From contig JACZXB010000012.1 in the NCBI GenBank assembly GCA_022571845.1, forward strand, positions 127 through 64,126: DNA of 64,000 bases, read 5' to 3'. This document shows, piece after piece, positions 6,817 through 63,099 of the stretch (the stretch's first letter is position 1; every line of letters begins with the position of its first letter). This DNA comes from Candidatus Zixiibacteriota bacterium. GTDB taxonomy: Bacteria; Zixibacteria; MSB-5A5; GN15; FEB-12. The notes beneath the pieces are model-generated. The model did not search any database. It was given only the letters and a program-made list of their open reading frames with translations, and had not been told where the DNA came from. The position numbers were made by a program, and so were the translations under genes.

Positions 6817-6875
6817 AACCCTTTCGACCCTTTCCGCCGAGGCGGACTCAGGACGAGCGCAGGCTCATGGTGACG
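6817..6875 (-). repeat. composite family A repeat (reverse orientation)
   Basis: ccctttcgaccctttccgccgaggcggactcaggacgagcgcaggctcatggtgacg is nearly identical to 20311-20367. Confidence 0.85.
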
Positions 6876-20310: not shown

Positions 20311-20367
20311 ACCTTTCGACCCTTTCCGCCGAGGCGGACTCAGGACAAGGCAGGCTCAGGGTGACGA
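20311..20367 (-). repeat. composite family A repeat
   Basis: acctttcgaccctttccgccgaggcggactcaggacaaggcaggctcagggtgacg. Near-duplicate of 6817-6875. Confidence 0.85.
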
Positions 20368-21445: not shown

Positions 21446-22549
21446 TTATTGAACTGTTTGCGAGGAAATGCTTGTAAACTGATTAATTTCTGTCGTTGTT
21501 ATAAGCCGAAACTCTGCTTTCCTCTCTTTTATATCGTAAACATAGAAATTCAGCAAAAACATCCCTCCCCCGAGAATTCCTAACCAGTTGCCATCTGCCG
21601 TCACGGCAAGCAGTTTAGGAGGCATGCAGCCAACAGGCGAACAAAAGAATCCGGAATCAATTACAACTGTATCGATTTCGTTTTTCTCTACATCAAAAAT
21701 CGTAAAGCTTTGGTTCGCCGGAGGGTCTGTACTGGTTCGGCCAGGGCTTGTGTAATAGACAAATCTCCCATCTGATGATTGTACAAGGCTGCCACTTCCT
21801 GGAACTAGTTCGTCTCGGAATATAATTGAATCCAGTGTCACATCATAAACTTGAAAAGACCAAGTCCAGAGACCAAGAACTACATATAGGAATAGTTTTG
21901 TATTATCAATTGAAGGTATTACATACACAACACTACCTCCATCAAATCCCTTTCTATTAAGCTCAAATGTATTGTTCGATAGGTCTATACTAAGCACTAC
22001 GCTACTACTATCCGGGCTTAACAGTGAAGCACAAAAGAACATTTTACTGTCGTTCGAAAATGCTCCATTGACGTAAAGGATTTGTGATGAATCTTTGTAG
22101 ACGACCTTGTAATCAGATGTTCTTAAAATAAACAATTGGTTCCCAGTGAGGGCTATGTACTGGTTATTCGGGGAAACTGATACGGGGTAAAGGCTTGGGT
22201 ACGGAATTTCAGCTACAAAGGTAAGAGAATCAGTCCCTGCGACAATTATTGAGTTGCCTTGTGCAAAATAAAGCAATTTGCCATCTGCTGAAGCTGTTAT
22301 CCCGGGGAAAGTTCCCCAAGGAACTTGAACTGAATCTATTCGGTTTGTATTTGGTGTATAAGTATACAGCCTATTATTCTGTGCGTCCGCAAAGTAAAAC
22401 TTGTAAAATGTCGGCTCGACCGGTTCAACCGGTTTGTCACAGCTGAAACCCAATAGAAAGCACGAAAGTATAGCCGTAAATAATAGCTGATATCTGAGAT
22501 TTTTCGTCACCTGTATTTCCCTACATTTATTGACGAAGCTGTCGCCCAT
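21446..22549 (-). CDS. beta-propeller repeat lipoprotein, unknown function
   Basis: Lipobox LLGFSC. Repeated blades (SADGKLLYFA, SPNNQYIAL, SSDGRFVYY, TADGNWLGI). The track ORF extends to 22702, but that extension is encoded by a family A repeat, so Met at 22549 is preferred. Confidence 0.7.
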   Translation of the reverse strand: MGDSFVNKCREIQVTKNLRYQLLFTAILSCFLLGFSCDKPVEPVEPTFYKFYFADAQNNRLYTYTPNTNRIDSVQVPWGTFPGITASADGKLLYFAQGNSIIVAGTDSLTFVAEIPYPSLYPVSVSPNNQYIALTGNQLFILRTSDYKVVYKDSSQILYVNGAFSNDSKMFFCASLLSPDSSSVVLSIDLSNNTFELNRKGFDGGSVVYVIPSIDNTKLFLYVVLGLWTWSFQVYDVTLDSIIFRDELVPGSGSLVQSSDGRFVYYTSPGRTSTDPPANQSFTIFDVEKNEIDTVVIDSGFFCSPVGCMPPKLLAVTADGNWLGILGGGMFLLNFYVYDIKERKAEFRLITTTEINQFTSISSQTVQ

Positions 22550-22649
22550 GCGTGCAAAAATAGGTACCATAAGGTACATACTACTTCCGCCCCGCCTGTC
22601 AAGCGAAATTTGGCGGAAATATTGGATAATATATAAGGCCAGCGCAGAA

Positions 22650-22700
22650 GGGTAGACCCTTTCCGCTGAGGGGGACACAGGAAAGGCTCCGCTCAGCACC
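22650..22700 (-). repeat. family A-like interspersed repeat
   Basis: The reverse complement reads gtgctgagcggagcctttcctgtgtccccctcagcggaaagggtc, which produces the artefactual MVLSGAFPVSPSAERV N-terminus. Confidence 0.7.
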
Positions 22701-22819
22701 ACACTATATATAGGGGGGGCTATTGAGGCGGATTTTGAACCCTGAGATTCAAATTTGCGTTGAATAAGCGTATGTATTATGCTGTTTGGAAATTGAACCG
22801 ATTATGAGATATAAAACTA

Positions 22820-26973: not shown

Positions 26974-27040
26974 GTCGAAACCATCCCGAGTACGTGAGGT
27001 TTCGACCTACTCACTGTCCTGAGCCTGTCGAAGGGTGACG
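26974..27040. repeat. family H hairpin followed by a family A repeat
   Basis: gtcgaaaccatcccgagtacgtgaggtttcgac + ctgtcctgagcctgtcgaagggtgacg. Confidence 0.8.
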
Positions 27041-27821: not shown

Positions 27822-27902
27822 CGTCACCCTGAGTCCGCCTCGGCGGAAAGGATGACACAGGGTGCGAGTTATTCTGTGGTGTCGGACGCCCTCGTCCGAC
27901 AC
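27822..27902 (+). repeat. family A repeat plus a 10-bp-stem hairpin
   Basis: cgtcaccctgagtccgcctcggcggaaaggatgac, then gtgtcggacg-ccct-cgtccgacac. Confidence 0.75.
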
Positions 27903-32688: not shown

Positions 32689-32788
32689 AGTCATCCTGAG
32701 CGGAGTCGAAAGATGTTCCATACTCCCTTCATCCTGAGCCTTACAGCAAAGTCCCGCTTACTCGAGGGAGTCGAAAGATGTTCCACAC
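32689..32788 (+). repeat. two family A repeats, the second with an inserted inner element
   Basis: gtcatcctgagcggagtcgaaagatgttcca, then tcatcctgagc[cttacagcaaagtcccgcttactcgag]ggagtcgaaagatgttcca. Confidence 0.85.
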
Positions 32789-47282: not shown

Positions 47283-47957
47283 TCAGTTGGTGCCTTGCGC
47301 AGAAGAAGTCTTGATAGTTGTTGCTTTCTTAGCTGCACCACAAGTTTTGCCGGTCCAACCAATCGTGCTGGTTTTGGCATCAGTACTGACTGTTGCTACC
47401 GCCGGGATAATTTCTGCTTCAAAACCTCTGGCACTTACAGCTTTCAACAAAACTTCGCTGGATGCATTATCCGGATTGGCACAAACAACTGCATAGCCGG
47501 ACTTATAACAAACTCCGAGAACTTTGTTAACACCGTCAATGTTCATTAAGGCTGCCTTGATTGTGTTTTCACAACCAGCACAAGTCATCCCTTTGATTGA
47601 CATTTTTGTATAATTACAATCTTTAGCCGCAGCACATAACTCTGCGTGATTCGCTTTAACAGCAGCTAAACAGGCTTCAATCTGCTCAGGAGAGCAAGTA
47701 GCTGATGCCAGCTTGGCAGAAGTTGTTGAATTCTTGTAAGCACAGACTGACTTGCCGGCCAGGCTTCCGGAACTTTTCGATGAGGTCACGCTGGTAGTAA
47801 ATTTGACAGTTGTCTGAGAAAGCGAGCAGCCCGATTTGACCGAGGCTGTCTTGGCGCTGAATGAGCAGGCAGGATTGCTTTCACAAGCAAACGCAGCCAA
47901 AGCACCCATGGCCACAAAAGCCATCACTGTAAAACCGACAAATAGTACTTTTCTCAC
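47283..47957 (-). CDS. secreted heavy-metal-associated (HMA) domain protein with a Cys/Ser/Thr-rich N-terminal half
   Basis: Signal peptide. HMA motif MSIKGMTCAGCENTIKAALMNIDGV. Several additional Cys pairs lie upstream. Confidence 0.8.
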   Translation of the reverse strand: MRKVLFVGFTVMAFVAMGALAAFACESNPACSFSAKTASVKSGCSLSQTTVKFTTSVTSSKSSGSLAGKSVCAYKNSTTSAKLASATCSPEQIEACLAAVKANHAELCAAAKDCNYTKMSIKGMTCAGCENTIKAALMNIDGVNKVLGVCYKSGYAVVCANPDNASSEVLLKAVSARGFEAEIIPAVATVSTDAKTSTIGWTGKTCGAAKKATTIKTSSAQGTN

Positions 47958-48162: not shown

Positions 48163-48219
48163 TCTATTGTTGTCTTTCCAGTCTATTGTTGTCTTTCCAG
48201 TCTATTGTTGTCTTTCCAG
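48163..48219 (+). repeat. 3 x 19-bp perfect tandem repeat
   Basis: (tctattgttgtctttccag)x3 runs into the hairpin element ttccagcgaaggctggaa. Located in the divergent HMA/arsC spacer. Confidence 0.9.
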
Positions 48220-48347
48220 CGAAGGCTGGAACCCATCTTCTCTTCGCGCAGACAGGAATCCATCCCCGAACAGGTTTTGCAGGGTCTTGTTCTCCGCCTG
48301 CGGAGGATGTGACCCTGTAGTTACGGACCAAAAACGGAGCTAACCAC

Positions 48348-48890
48348 TTGCGTATCTTAGTCTTATGTACCGGCAATTCCTGCCGCTCTCAGATGGCCGA
48401 AGGCTTTTTCAGAGCCTACGGCAACGATTCTATCGAGGTTCTCAGCGCCGGTCTGGAGCCCGGCGGAGTTAACCCCTTGGCTATCAAAGTGATGGCTGAA
48501 ATCGACATCGATATATCCGGCCATTCCTCGAACAATTTGAATGAATACCTGGAAATGGAATTCGATTATGTCATAACTGTCTGCGACAACGCCGCCCAAA
48601 AATGCCCGATTTTCCTAGGCCCAAAGGGTCACCCTGAGCGGACAAAGTCCCGCCAAGGGAGTCGAAGGGCGGACCAAGAAAGTCATCCTGCGCCACCCCT
48701 TGGAAGTCACCCTGAGCCTGTCGAAAGGCAACTTCCAGAACGTGTCCACTGGCCGATTCCTGACCCGGCCACCGCCCTAAAATCCACCTCCGAAAAGGCC
48801 GCAACCGAAGACGAAGTTCTGCAAGTATTCCGCAAAATCAGGGATGAGATTGAGCAGAAGATAAAGGCCTGGCTGAAAACTGCAAAATGA
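48348..48890 (+). CDS. arsC: arsenate reductase (thioredoxin-coupled, LMW-PTP fold) carrying an in-frame ~37-aa repeat-derived insertion
   Basis: TTG start after GGAG. Motifs LCTGNSCRSQMAEG, TVCDNAAQKCP, HWPIPDPA. An extra KGHPERTKSRQGSRRADQESHPAPPLGSHPEPVERQLPE lies between the last two motifs. Confidence 0.85.
   Translation: MRILVLCTGNSCRSQMAEGFFRAYGNDSIEVLSAGLEPGGVNPLAIKVMAEIDIDISGHSSNNLNEYLEMEFDYVITVCDNAAQKCPIFLGPKGHPERTKSRQGSRRADQESHPAPPLGSHPEPVERQLPERVHWPIPDPATALKSTSEKAATEDEVLQVFRKIRDEIEQKIKAWLKTAK
48627..48729 (+). repeat. cluster of three family A-type interspersed repeats inside the arsC reading frame
   Basis: ggtcaccctgagc[ggacaaagtcccgccaag]ggagtcgaaggg ... gtcatcctgcgccaccccttggaa gtcaccctgagcctgtcgaaaggc. 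Matches intergenic copies at 32729, 51722 and 27013. Confidence 0.85.
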
Positions 48891-48975: not shown

Positions 48976-49872
48976 GTGTCAAACATGAATTATGACATTA
49001 TCAAAGTTTCTTTAGTGCGAAATTCACTACTTGCGATTTTCAGCATTACCATATTATCAGTTGCATCTGCTGCTAAGACTCACAAAGTAACATCTTCCTG
49101 GGTTGACCATGAATTCAGCATTGACGGCAACATGAAAGAGTGGTTCAAGGTTGAGTCAAAATATCTGTCTGACCAGGAGGCTTCCGTTTCGATTTGTAAC
49201 GACGAAAAATTTCTATACATTCTCTTCAAAACCAGAGAAGCAAAGTGGGCTCGAACTATCAAAATGACAGGGCTCAATCTGTATATTAATAAAGATGGCA
49301 AAAACAAAAAAGACTTCTTTATACGCTTCAAAGGCGGTCCAAACAACGCCCAGCTCAAAGCCATGGCCGGAGGCATGAATGAACGAGGATCCGGCGAGTC
49401 CCGAATGTCCCGCATGCCGGCTGATATTAGAAAAAAATACGAGCAGGCCATGAATGACAACACCCAAACGCTTATTTGTTCCATTAATGACAATGTCAAC
49501 AAAGTCGTACCGCTTGATGGCAGCGAAGGTCCGGCGGCAGCCTTTGATACCTCGAACGGGTTTTTTGTATACGAGTTTAAGATTCCTCTCGACAAAGGCA
49601 AAGATCGTTACTACGGCATCGGTATCGAACCGGGACATAAAATAGCCATCGGCGCCGAATGGGGCGACATGGGTGACTTCCGTCGCAGACAGGCGGGAGA
49701 ATTTGGCGGCAGACAAATGCCGGGTGGCGGAGGCAGACCACCTGGGGGCGGCGGATTTGATGGCGGACACCGCAGGATGGGCGGCGGCGGCCGACCAAAA
49801 ATGCCCACTAAGCAGGAAGTCTGGTTTAAAACCAAAATTGCTGTCAAAGCAGCAGCAGAAACTTCCAAATAG
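48976..49872 (+). CDS. secreted protein with a Gly/Arg/Pro-rich C-terminal region, unknown function
   Basis: Signal-anchor LLAIFSITILSVASA. Tail GGRQMPGGGGRPPGGGGFDGGHRRMGGGGRP. Start is GTG 48976 or ATG 48985. Confidence 0.65.
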   Translation: MSNMNYDIIKVSLVRNSLLAIFSITILSVASAAKTHKVTSSWVDHEFSIDGNMKEWFKVESKYLSDQEASVSICNDEKFLYILFKTREAKWARTIKMTGLNLYINKDGKNKKDFFIRFKGGPNNAQLKAMAGGMNERGSGESRMSRMPADIRKKYEQAMNDNTQTLICSINDNVNKVVPLDGSEGPAAAFDTSNGFFVYEFKIPLDKGKDRYYGIGIEPGHKIAIGAEWGDMGDFRRRQAGEFGGRQMPGGGGRPPGGGGFDGGHRRMGGGGRPKMPTKQEVWFKTKIAVKAAAETSK

Positions 49873-50108: not shown

Positions 50109-51548
50109 ATGAGTAACGAATTCAACAAAGCAGAATCTTTCGGTGCAGATTATTTGTTTGAGTTAAAGAAACATTTTGCGAGTAGAGGAATACAATTTAC
50201 TCAAAAAGTAGGCGAAGTAATTGAATCTGCAGCATCAAAAGCGTACGACACAGGAACAGGAGTCTACGATTCAACCTTGATGGCATCTTTAATCAGGAAT
50301 AAAACAGTCATTCTTAATGTGCTTGATATCCACGAAATTGACATTTCTACGTACTTGAATGAGATGGATGAAGATTCCTCTCTTTCTTGGTCTGAATATT
50401 TCGATGAGAGTACGCTCAATGAAATCGTCGATGAACTGTGCTTACTGCTTGTTCCGGACAGAGTTGGACTTCAATCTTTTCGCGTTTTAGACTTGGCTGC
50501 TGAGATCGCTAGTTCAAGTCACGGCAAGGTAATTGATACCAAGTCTTTTATTTTGGCTCTTTTTAGGCAGGCAACGTCATTTGAACGGAAGCTGACGCGC
50601 GAGACTATTAGACAGTTAGGGAAAACTAATTTGAGTGATCAGGTATACGACAGAGTCCAATCAACTGTTGGAGAAGATGAACTTAAGGAGTGGTATGGTA
50701 AAGAATTTAGTATTATAGATGCTCCTCTTGAGTGGGTCTTGGAGGAATTGCGAGATGGCTGCGTTTCTGGTGTAAGTCCAATCCTAGAGAAATTGGCAAA
50801 TAAGTGTAAAAACTTAAGATCACTTGCGAAAATAGAATACGACTTAAAAATGGCGAATGTCATAGAACCTTATCTTGATGATACGAAATTTGCTCTCATT
50901 AGTACAACCAAGGGCATAATCTTTAGAGAATTCTCGTATTTAAACTCATATAAAGTACTTGGTTTTCCGGAGCCTTCTGCTGTAAAAATAAACGTTCTAA
51001 GTAGCGGAAAATTCATTAGATATGAGGAAATTGACGAGTTTGAAGAGCTTATTAATTTACCTAATGTTTCAGAATATGATTTACAGAAATTCTTTGAACA
51101 CCGCCCTTGGTTTTTGCTAGGGAGCAACTACGAAAGACTTCACAGTCAACTTGCGCTCGTAAATGATACTGATACAGAATTGGTTCCAGACTTTTTTGCT
51201 GAGAAAATCGGTACAAGTTATTCTGATATTATTGACCTTAAGAAGCCCACGGAAAAAGTAATAGTTGGGCCAAAACATCGAAGAGGATTTACGGCTGCTC
51301 TAACAAATGCACTTAATCAGCTAAGAGAATATCGAAATTACTTTGACGACTCCAAAAATAGAAAAGCATTTTATGCGAGGCATGGGCTATACGCATTTCG
51401 ACCAAATGTCTGTGTTGTAATTGGAAGATCGAGTGACTATTTGGACCATATTGAGAGGATTAAGATTGATGACGAATACAAGAACATGAAAGTTGTTACT
51501 TACGATGATATCCTTGTCAGATCAAAGAGAATGGCTCTTGTAATCTAG
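50109..51548 (+). CDS. Shedu-like (SduA/DUF4263-type PD-(D/E)xK nuclease) defence protein with an unassigned N-terminal region
   Basis: C-terminal ~160 aa: EYDLQKFFEHRPWFLLGSNY...ELVPDFFAEK...SDIIDLKKP...ALNQLREY (QxxxY)...VCVVIGRS...MKVVTYDDIL. The gene is AT-rich and isolated. Confidence 0.7.
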   Translation: MSNEFNKAESFGADYLFELKKHFASRGIQFTQKVGEVIESAASKAYDTGTGVYDSTLMASLIRNKTVILNVLDIHEIDISTYLNEMDEDSSLSWSEYFDESTLNEIVDELCLLLVPDRVGLQSFRVLDLAAEIASSSHGKVIDTKSFILALFRQATSFERKLTRETIRQLGKTNLSDQVYDRVQSTVGEDELKEWYGKEFSIIDAPLEWVLEELRDGCVSGVSPILEKLANKCKNLRSLAKIEYDLKMANVIEPYLDDTKFALISTTKGIIFREFSYLNSYKVLGFPEPSAVKINVLSSGKFIRYEEIDEFEELINLPNVSEYDLQKFFEHRPWFLLGSNYERLHSQLALVNDTDTELVPDFFAEKIGTSYSDIIDLKKPTEKVIVGPKHRRGFTAALTNALNQLREYRNYFDDSKNRKAFYARHGLYAFRPNVCVVIGRSSDYLDHIERIKIDDEYKNMKVVTYDDILVRSKRMALVI

Positions 51549-51721
51549 ATGCTTGCCAATCCACAAACATTTACAACTGCATTATGCCGGGTCGCCCACG
51601 GGTTACCGTGGGTTCATATCGGATTTAAGCAATCGCTCAGATTTTCTGCTTGTATGATCAGCTGGATTTCACGTCAGGCGTGGAATGACAATACTCAATT
51701 AGGATTACAAAATCATAATGG

Positions 51722-51885
51722 GTCGTCACCCTGAGCCTGTCGAAGGGGGCGACCCAAGTATTTAGCAACCATACTTCGACAAGCTCAGTATGACTTAGAT
51801 TGTGAGTTCAGTATGACAATTTCAAAAGATGGATTCCCGACTGCCCCGAGACTGCGCTCGGGATTAAAACTCGGGAATGACAAAT
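51722..51885. repeat. repeat cluster: inverted pair of family A copies plus a nested hairpin element
   Basis: gtcgtcaccctgagcctgtcgaaggg (+), ttcgacaagctcagtatgac (-), and gatggattcccga[ctgccccgagactgcgctcgggattaaaa]ctcgggaatgac. Confidence 0.8.
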
Positions 51886-62616: not shown

Positions 62617-62869
62617 AAGATTCTCCCCTGTAAGCGCTAAGAATTATGGATTAAGATGATTATGACCAGTACGAAAATCAAGCTAAATAGTCAAGAATTT
62701 GGCTTTCGAGGCATACCGAATTGCCTGCAATACGTTGCCTTGTAGAATTTGGCGCAACTGCACAATCAGCTATTGAATTTACTTTGGATTCGAATCGCTT
62801 AGATTTCGCTGACACTTAGCCGAAAGAGGCAAATATATTTGCCCGGCATGGGGTTAAGAAATTTAACAC

Positions 62870-62926
62870 TCCCCTGTAGCTCTGTTGGTAGAGTCCCGCT
62901 ATGGTGGCATTAATCAGCGGGTCGTA
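62870..62926 (+). pseudogene. tRNA-Asn 5'-half remnant (no T-arm or 3' acceptor strand)
   Basis: tcccctgtagctctgttggtagag matches the acceptor and D arm of the intact gene. It is then followed by a disrupted anticodon region and unrelated sequence. Confidence 0.7.
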
Positions 62927-62965
62927 ATGATCCACTATTTATACTTTCCAATCTCTTAAATTTCG

Positions 62966-62993
62966 TTGACATTTAACCGAAAGAAGCTAATAT
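62966..62993 (+). promoter_or_regulatory. sigma70-type promoter of tRNA-Asn
   Basis: TTGACA (62966-62971), 16-nt spacer, TAATAT (62988-62993). About 33 nt upstream of the tRNA 5' end. Confidence 0.5.
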
Positions 62994-63026
62994 ATTTGCC
63001 CTGCATTGGGTTAAGAAATTTGACAC

Positions 63027-63099
63027 TCCCCTGTAGCTCAGTTGGTAGAGCAATTGACTGTTAATCAATGGGTCGTAGGTTCGAGTCCTACCGGGGGAG
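63027..63099 (+). tRNA. tRNA-Asn (anticodon GTT)
   Basis: Manual fold: acceptor TCCCCTG/CGGGGGA, D arm GCTC..GAGC, anticodon stem ATTGA/TCAAT with loop CTGTTAA, T arm GTAGG-TTCGAGT-CCTAC. No encoded CCA. Confidence 0.9.

Follow-up and report, generated by a model that had tools for sequence, protein, structure and literature searches.

A stretch of 64,000 nucleotides from a Candidatus Zixiibacteriota bacterium (contig JACZXB010000012.1, positions 127 to 64,126; hereafter the window) carries an arsenate reductase gene, arsC, into which a cluster of short hairpin-forming repeats is inserted in frame close to the redox-active cysteines. We consider it very likely that this cluster is a tolerated, hypervariable insertion in a functional gene, resembling repetitive extragenic palindromes (REPs) and their inverted doublets (REPINs), that it is neither the mark of a pseudogene nor an assembly artefact, and that it bears no sign of an acquired function.

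The translation of arsC (MRILVLCTGNSCRSQMAEG...TVCDNAAQKCP...HWPIPDPA, containing CTGNSCRSQMAEG) retains all invariant and nearly invariant residues of 118 homologues, including Cys7, Arg13, Cys79, Cys86, Pro87, and Asp139, and alignment to the B. subtilis ArsC structure 1jl3 equates Cys79 and Cys86 with Cys82 and Cys89. The P-loop C-X5-R-(S/T), the cysteine spacing, and the low-molecular-weight protein tyrosine phosphatase (LMW-PTP) fold of thioredoxin-coupled ArsC are all present; the best-scoring family for the protein is TIGR02691, and the NCBI name for its orthologues is ArsC. By these signatures the ORF is a thioredoxin-type (LMW-PTP fold) ArsC whose catalytic motifs appear intact, and the enzyme is probably active. 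Pfam LMWPc (E 1e-20) and NCBIfam TIGR02691 (arsC_pI258_fam) each match the protein in a single stretch, aa 3–89 only, because the insert breaks the profile alignment. The ArsC structures 8p5n (D. indicus ArsC2) and 1jl3 align at aa 2–90 and 131–177, leaving about 37 residues between aa 90 and 131 without a counterpart in either. Correspondingly, the linker from Cys86-Pro87 to His134-Trp135 is 46 aa long in the window protein, while it is 9 aa in 66 of the 101 parsable homologues.

Compared with an empty allele that has the linker VFPGKALRV (L093; linker DNA TTCCCCGGCAAAG / CACTTCGTGTCCACTGG), the window gene has gained a net 37 codons (111 nt). The insert is a composite of a full unit with a nested piece, a 5′ half-unit, and a second full unit (Table 1), and Tandem Repeats Finder made no tandem-repeat call on it. 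The intergenic copy at 32728–32780 holds a related but longer nested piece, and the half-unit at 48682–48701 is duplicated once more in one orthologue (L086) and missing from another (P0023). At the right junction, the 3′ arm of the element (GACTTCC) overlaps a pre-existing ACTTC. The insert is richer in GC (59%) than the remainder of the gene (50%) and the window as a whole (46%). A first-pass annotation made from the letters alone had described an ArsC that keeps the cysteine pair in TVCDNAAQKCP and the HWPIPDPA segment, with a linker of 46 aa where about 9 were expected, filled by members of an intergenic repeat family and translated without a stop or frameshift. Translation, profile, and PDB alignments agree with this description of the enzyme, the linker lengths and repeat matches support the remainder, and the frame has no stop; by contrast, its figure of about 105 nt gives way to 111 nt on comparison with the near-identical empty-site allele, and its three tandem copies are replaced by the composite of nested and half units.

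The family to which the insert belongs has the hairpin-forming core GTCAYCCTGAGC-N3-4-TCGAAGGR and comprises about nine repeat units within the 64 kb. Allowing at most one mismatch, the 12-mer GTCACCCTGAGC occurs seven times in the window, against 0.13 occurrences expected. Positions 48706–48728 of the insert are 96% identical to 51725–51747, and 48627–48672 shares 34 identical bases with 32729–32775, with two 5-nt indels. Apart from arsC, all copies in the window are intergenic, so that the intragenic location accounts for one of about eight sites, and when all long window ORFs were scanned for peptides typical of the repeat, arsC was the single hit. The spacers that host copies number at least six and include those between purL and an FG-GAP protein gene, rsgA and a SIR2 gene, a glyoxalase and an ompA-like gene, and lon and ychF, and the one downstream of a Shedu-like gene. 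Nesting recurs outside arsC: the 38-nt segments 6820–6857 and 20312–20349 are variant units (GTCCTGAGTCCGCCTCGGCGGAAAGG), each enclosed by the loop of a family unit. The doublet at 51725–51794 has 21-nt arms that are 86% complementary, with 28 nt between them. As a separate observation, a third, weaker copy of the 38-nt segment at 22649–22686 overlaps the annotated 5′ end of ORF 21446–22702.

Table 1. Features of arsC, its insert, and the related repeat copies in the window.
Feature	Position	Strand	Basis or remark
arsC coding sequence, 180 aa, TTG start	48348–48890	+	Translation, Pfam, NCBIfam, PDB alignment, AlphaFold2/Foldseek
P-loop CTGNSCRS (Cys7...Arg13-Ser14)	48366–48389	+	Translation; columns nearly invariant in alignment A2
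Redox segment Cys79-DNAAQK-Cys86-Pro87	48582–48608	+	C79, C86, and P87 invariant in alignments A1 and A2
Repeat-derived in-frame insert, Pro92–Glu131	48621–48740 (about)	+	Alignment A3 against L093, linker lengths, pLDDT, GC
Unit 1, long hairpin-repeat form, GGTCACCCTGAGCGG[...]AGTCGAAGGGCGGACC	48627–48675	+	Short form (no nested piece) in L087 and L091
Nested 18-nt piece ACAAAGTCCCGCCAAGGG in the loop of unit 1	48642–48659	+	Precisely missing from L087 and L091
5′ half-unit GTCATCCTGCGCCACCCCTT, without 3′ arm	48682–48701	+	24-nt period counting the next GGAA
Unit 3, full short hairpin unit, GGAAGTCACCCTGAGCCTGTCGAAAGGCAACTTCC	48702–48736	+	96% identity to 51725–51747; hairpin predicted
HWPIPDPA (strand β4, catalytic Asp139 region), directly 3′ of insert	48747–48770	+	Translation, alignment A1, AlphaFold2 (strand 131–134)
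Intergenic nested copy	6820–6874	-	Inner 38 nt 97% identical to 20312–20349
Intergenic nested copy, variant unit in loop of family unit	20312–20365	-	
Intergenic copy	27013–27039	+	
Intergenic copy of variant unit GTCACCCTGAGTCCGCCTCGGCGGAAAGGATGAC	27823–27856	+	
Intergenic copy, short	32690–32715	+	Between lon and ychF
Intergenic copy, long, with nested piece	32728–32780	+	Between lon and ychF
Intergenic inverted doublet, REPIN-like	51719–51794	arms 51725–51745 (+), 51774–51794 (-)	Unit itself 51719–51756

We modeled the protein with AlphaFold2 using 118 aligned homologues, obtaining a mean predicted local distance difference test score (pLDDT) of 84.6 and a predicted template modeling score of 0.77, with most ten-residue blocks of the core at 88–97. 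Residues 91–130, in contrast, scored 60, 51, 58, and 75 per ten-residue block and had no secondary structure. In the model the insert sits between helix 80–85, within the Cys79...Cys86 segment, and strand 131–134. The top Foldseek matches of the model are 1jl3 and 8p5n (E about 3e-13; TM-score 0.87 normalised to the target), and the insert itself is rich in Pro, Glu, Arg, and Ser, with a mean hydropathy of -1.85 compared with -0.12 for the core. The insert is thus predicted to be a low-confidence coil that forms a disordered surface loop on an intact ArsC fold. In ArsC (1jl3, 1z2d/e, 2ipa), the disulfide cascade involves a rearrangement of the stretch between Cys82 and about residue 97; hence the insert lengthens a surface loop that is already mobile.

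The closest genome loci belong to Candidatus Zixiibacteriota metagenome-assembled genomes. A protein search returned about 30 close relatives with 65–89% identity and lengths of 128–208 aa, and alignment places their length differences exactly at the linker between Cys-Pro and His-Trp. The DNA of 13 orthologous loci was taken from independent assemblies (ENA, NCBI, and Logan). The order HMA (heavy-metal-associated) domain gene, arsC, and a gene for a protein of about 295 aa is kept in those with enough flank (L002, L004, L088–L092), and we therefore treated the loci as true orthologues. Across syntenic orthologues from more than 10 independent assemblies the linker ranges from 9 to 65 aa, and from 15 to 65 aa in the closest orthologues, always in frame. 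The shortest form, with 9 aa, is found in L093, P0026, and P0032, and a 17-aa form with ...PSRNSPEK... in L001 and L002, the 24-nt PSRNSPEK insertion not being a repeat in this window. The remaining alleles can be read as module combinations: unit 3 alone (20 aa; P0023), the half-unit with unit 3 (28 aa; L088 and L092), these two with the short form of unit 1 (40 aa; L087), the same with the nested 18 nt (46 aa; the window and L085), the 46-aa form with a further nested 27-nt piece in the loop of unit 3 (55 aa; L005), a form with an extra half-unit (54 aa; L086), and four tandem 36-nt units of a related hairpin, CCCCGAGCGAAGCCTCGGGG (65 aa; L004). At the DNA level, the modules that separate alleles measure 18, 24, 27, 33, and 36 nt. 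Furthermore, a distant Zixibacteria ArsC subclade (P0031, P0034, P0038, P0040, and P0075) carries a different repeat peptide (RPNPPAPFPEEEGG...) at the same linker, and P0052 and P0031 have repeat-like insertions in a second loop, after DPA, where the P0052 peptides are of HCEP type. Since a 9-aa linker is the norm in all other phyla, the insertion is the derived state. Two of the checks that the first-pass annotation had proposed, an orthologue alignment and a structural model, thus found the insertion to be polymorphic in length and predicted it to be a disordered surface loop.

Short interspersed repeats are a classic cause of mis-assembly, and in L093 the 5′ end of arsC is partly duplicated in an odd way; a metagenome assembler might accordingly have mis-joined repeat DNA into the gene. 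This is extremely unlikely, as the same three-part 46-aa architecture was assembled independently in L085 (ERZ23495196) with 19 substitutions in the linker, related architectures are present in more than 10 other assemblies produced by different assemblers, and both frame and flanks are seamless.

Comparison of linker states with their flanks indicates how these alleles are related. On the 5′ side of the linker, L093 (9 aa) and L085 (46 aa) differ at 5 of 213 positions, and on the 3′ side all 96 compared positions are identical, giving 5 differences in 309; over longer aligned flanks the differences are 6/258, 0/150, and 1/72. Between L092 (28 aa) and L001 (17 aa), the flanks show 12/213 and 3/96 differences. 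Measured against L085 and L093, the window diverges by about 10% in the 5′ flank of the linker but at only 1 of 96 positions in the 3′ flank. Linker states thus vary independently of the flanks, and the gene is a mosaic. This pattern is suggestive of recombination with a breakpoint in or close to the repeat cluster; on these alignments, linker turnover is much faster than point substitution, and homologous recombination between strains appears to be involved.

Selection on the gene was estimated by the Nei-Gojobori method over 103 core codons. The ratio of nonsynonymous to synonymous substitution rates (dN/dS) of the core is 0.07–0.23 for the window against each orthologue and 0.155 pooled over all pairs. 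For the linker, the two 46-aa alleles (the window and L085) give dN 0.137 and dS 0.198, a ratio of about 0.69; the insert peptide evolves close to neutrally. These values bear on the proposal, also raised in the first-pass annotation, that the insertion inactivated arsC and left a very young pseudogene whose frame is open by chance. Stops are missing from four of the six frames of the insert; a single open event would thus not be improbable, and openness alone is unremarkable; arsC also lies outside a canonical ars operon, with no arsR, arsB, or acr3 near it, and its physiological substrate is therefore not certain. However, independent assemblies yielded at least 12 distinct alleles with an insert, none of them interrupted and none lacking the P-loop, Cys79, Cys86, Asp139, or any other catalytic residue; the successive module differences all preserve the frame, and the 64-kb window contains no second arsC. 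It is this repeated preservation of the frame across alleles, rather than the lack of stops by itself, that speaks for selection on the gene, and we regard the pseudogene explanation as very improbable.

The same first-pass annotation had left it undecided whether a mobile repeat had been tolerated or exapted as a surface loop. Tolerance is what the intergenic repeat matches, the predicted disordered loop, and the in-frame length polymorphism under purifying selection favour. Under exaptation, a loop placed four residues past the resolving Cys86 would modulate either the disulfide cascade or the way the enzyme interacts with thioredoxin, with selection favouring its variation in length. The site does lie within the segment that changes conformation in the ArsC redox cycle, and insertions recur there in at least two Zixibacteria subclades, from different repeat families and all in frame. 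Against this stand the dN/dS of the insert relative to that of the core (0.69 versus 0.16), its presence or absence between alleles as close as L093 and L085, and its predicted disorder; the conserved HPE motif of the peptide is the direct product of the conserved DNA core CACCCTGAG, and the acceptance of repeats by the second loop as well fits structural tolerance better. Taken together, purifying selection on the core, the intact residues, the near-neutral linker, and the lack of a second arsC in the window speak neither for a pseudogene nor for selection on what the peptide encodes; they argue against both, making exaptation improbable.

Another way to account for the recurrence is a target at the DNA level, whereby the repeat machinery recognises a feature of arsC, such as the GCAC-TTC-GTGC palindrome encoding Ala-Leu-Arg-Ala, and the permissiveness of the loop is secondary. 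The same inter-codon position harbours at least five different kinds of insert, the right junction of L001, L002, and L004 keeps a 5-bp palindrome by way of different sequences, and units nest within, and stutter beside, existing units. On the other hand, distant homologues without an insertion also form small hairpins here, through pairing of the Pro-Gly and His-Trp codons, and hence the small palindrome carries little weight as a specific target. As the second loop of the protein also accepts repeats and no enzyme or target motif was identified, we consider a specific DNA target rather unlikely.

Several observations weigh against a tolerated REP/REPIN-like insertion in a functional gene, the reading that we prefer. 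Among the 20 window ORFs scanned with Pfam, no REP-associated tyrosine transposase (RAYT), IS200-like or other transposase adjoins any copy of the repeat. Comparison of the junctions with the empty allele shows no target-site duplication, and no clean insertion boundary can be defined. The whole insert folds no better than shuffled sequence (z = 0.07 as DNA and -0.31 as RNA), and no inverted repeats were detected within 48600–48760; the genic copies are therefore weak, degraded hairpins. The wholesale exchange of linkers between near-identical alleles may reflect recombination instead of transposition or excision. On the protein side, TIGR02691 scores 131.3 bits with the insert and 138.8 bits without it, both below the equivalog cut-off of 174.3. 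Finally, the orthologues were located via predicted proteins, a procedure that would under-sample frameshifted alleles.

We propose that a short, non-autonomous hairpin repeat of REP/REPIN type, normally intergenic, entered the arsC gene of a Zixibacteria lineage at the loop between the Cys79-Cys86 redox helix and strand β4. The 111-nt cluster would then have been assembled stepwise from a full unit, a 5′ half-unit, a second full unit, and the nested 18-nt piece. Because the gene is under purifying selection, only stop-free variants with lengths in multiples of three would survive, and their translation would produce a Pro/Glu/Arg/Ser-rich disordered loop of about 37 residues while leaving the fold and the three catalytic cysteines intact. 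Since the peptide is nearly neutral, the linker would turn over much faster than the rest of the gene, through gain and loss of repeat modules and through homologous recombination between strains, giving rise to a hypervariable cassette of 9–65 aa in the population. The repeat is presumably mobile, and its reuse of this site is probably due to the structural permissiveness of the loop. A stronger claim, in which the arsC linker is a true mutational hotspot where a pan-bacterial hairpin, with a loop sequence shared across phyla and no mobilising enzyme yet described for it, repeatedly writes in-frame peptide modules beside the active-site cysteines, seems to us quite unlikely; if true, it would point to a general generator of loop-length diversity in enzymes, perhaps a selected one, and to a trans-acting factor still to be discovered.

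The hairpin repeat extends well beyond the window. An exact-pattern scan of metagenome contigs found at least 120 stretches carrying it, in soils, peat, sediments, and marine samples. One stem pair, formed by the variable Y of the 5′ arm with the base following GG of the 3′ arm, is T-A in 54, C-G in 27, T-G in 6, and mismatched in 1 of the 88 copies among the matches listed; this covariation implies that the stem is kept by compensatory change. The loop, together with GTCA on the 5′ side, is conserved as sequence. Among those same 88 copies, 76 lie outside long open frames and 12 within them, compared with 56% of random positions, and most of the frames concerned look spurious. Two cases among the matches listed, from unrelated metagenomes, are genuinely in frame: a 953-aa class-I aminoacyl-tRNA synthetase (L117, 1–2859, minus strand) with the repeat in opposite orientation, ...KDGK-ILRRAQDDSS-LKTE..., and an RNase D-like protein (L102, 837–2114, minus strand) whose exonuclease domain is split by a repeat insert of about 45 aa. 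REPIN-like inverted doublets that form long hairpins are also found in L107 and L116.

Against plasmids, blastn returned matches of 22–25 nt with 92–100% identity, mostly where no feature is annotated, in Sphingobium, Novosphingobium, Comamonas, Moraxella, Nitratireductor, Microbacterium, Hymenobacter, Planktothrix, and Gloeothece. The core motif thus recurs in Proteobacteria, Bacteroidota, Actinobacteria, Cyanobacteria, and Zixibacteria. On the Comamonas antarctica plasmid NZ_CP054841.1 (L214, 2334–2517), an intergenic array repeats a 27-nt 5′ half-unit 6.9 times and ends in one complete GTCACCCTGAGCCTGTCGAAGGGTG hairpin, with opposite-orientation copies (CCTTCGACAAGCTCAGGA) nearby. The stacking of 5′ half-units before one complete hairpin is shared by this array and the arsC insert, which belong to the same repeat family. 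A rule that stutter periods are multiples of three only inside genes did not emerge cleanly: intergenic periods are 19 nt in the window and 27 nt in Comamonas, and intragenic periods are 24 and 36 nt. Rfam holds no family matching the repeat at gathering or permissive thresholds, and a literature search with the DNA motif and its typical peptide translations found no paper describing it. A passing resemblance to the hammerhead core was set aside, as CUGAUGA is missing, and a possible link with small GIY-YIG nuclease genes was dropped after a crude motif scan found none in the window and 80 repeat-bearing metagenome loci.

Among known systems, the closest analogue of the arsC insert is the in-frame Rickettsia palindromic elements (RPEs). 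According to PMC10969869, which summarises Ogata et al. 2000, these are palindromic elements of about 150 bp that lie in frame in unrelated housekeeping or metabolic genes, with their peptides at sites where the host protein can still fold and work. The two share the character of selfish palindromic repeats that sit in frame in genes and are translated as extra segments at fold-compatible positions. They differ in that the arsC modules are 18–36 nt long, of other sequence, and in Zixibacteria, that the arsC cassette is a composite generated by nesting and half-unit duplication from a hairpin core spanning many phyla, and that nearly half of the RPEs are intragenic, as opposed to the single window site and the two clear cases among the listed copies reported here. 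REPs and REPINs are short palindromes, mainly extragenic, that are mobilised by RAYT transposases (PMC3116915). The present repeat resembles them as a short, imperfect, repetitive palindrome, mainly extragenic, with compensatory stem changes, inverted doublets that form long hairpins, and clusters arising by insertion into or beside existing copies. Unlike REPs, which are extragenic by definition, the arsC cluster is translated, and it is not itself a doublet; moreover, RAYT was not found among the scanned window ORFs, and REP families are usually lineage-specific, whereas the window core motif occurs in five bacterial groups. The repeat may therefore be called REP/REPIN-like by its behaviour, and full membership would need a RAYT.

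Two other classes of small element offer partial parallels. The cyanobacterial small dispersed repeats (SDRs) of Elhai and colleagues (2008) are reportedly hairpins of about 20–30 nt that nest in each other and can sit inside genes; both would then be very small hairpin repeats, differing in sequence family and phylum. Miniature inverted-repeat transposable elements differ in having terminal inverted repeats and target-site duplications, neither of which is seen at the arsC insert. On the protein side, the window enzyme shares the fold, CX5R(S/T), the Cys pair, and the catalytic Asp with the ArsCs of B. subtilis and S. aureus pI258 (1jl3 and 1ljl) and with D. indicus ArsC2 (8p5n), and departs from them in its long linker, in an extra 7–8 aa after DPA, and in the absence of an ars operon.

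With an empty site, intermediate alleles, nested pieces, and half-units all sampled from natural populations, the arsC locus gives an unusually detailed view of how selfish hairpins can lengthen an enzyme loop without destroying the enzyme. It extends the phenomenon of selfish DNA in coding genes from Rickettsia to an uncultivated phylum and to much smaller, REP-like modules, and it would provide a convenient natural experiment on the tolerance of the ArsC redox loop for disordered sequence. The locus also serves as a warning that profile searches split or under-score insert-bearing genes and that protein clustering at 90% identity scatters true orthologues.

The genes flanking arsC are the HMA-domain gene (47283–47957, minus strand), encoding a secreted, Ser/Thr/Ala-rich protein, and the gene of about 295 aa (48976–49872, plus strand), whose product ends in a Gly-rich tail and matches nothing in Pfam. 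The second gene downstream of arsC, a 479-aa ORF (50109–51548), contains the C-terminal nuclease domain of Shedu SduA (PF14082, E 2e-16) and may be an anti-phage defence gene. Upstream of arsC, in the spacer at 48163–48245, a perfect 19-nt repeat in three tandem copies (TCTATTGTTGTCTTTCCAG, 48163–48219) runs into a hairpin, GTCTTTCCAGCGAAGGCTGGAACCC, of a different family from the arsC insert but with the same layout of a 5′ half-unit stutter followed by one full hairpin; the corresponding spacer of L085 holds repeat units different from those of the window. In L093 (about 130–245; columns 201–316 of alignment A3), the first 29 or so nt of arsC are directly duplicated, and between the two copies lies an 83-nt segment that contains an alternative start (MSKHKLKILVLC...) as well as a GTCATTCCCGCGAAGGCGGGAATCC hairpin. 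Of the copies, the first agrees with the window-type allele and the second with the L085 type. Either repeats have genuinely remodelled the 5′ end, or the assembly has fused two strains into a chimera. Beside the doublet, the spacer after the Shedu-like gene contains a perfect 8-nt inverted repeat (ATTCCCGA / TCGGGAAT; 51833–51878) that represents another hairpin family. Near the end of the window, a 105-nt direct repeat (62789–62893 and 62946–63050; 89% identical) lies by a tRNA gene at 63027–63099.

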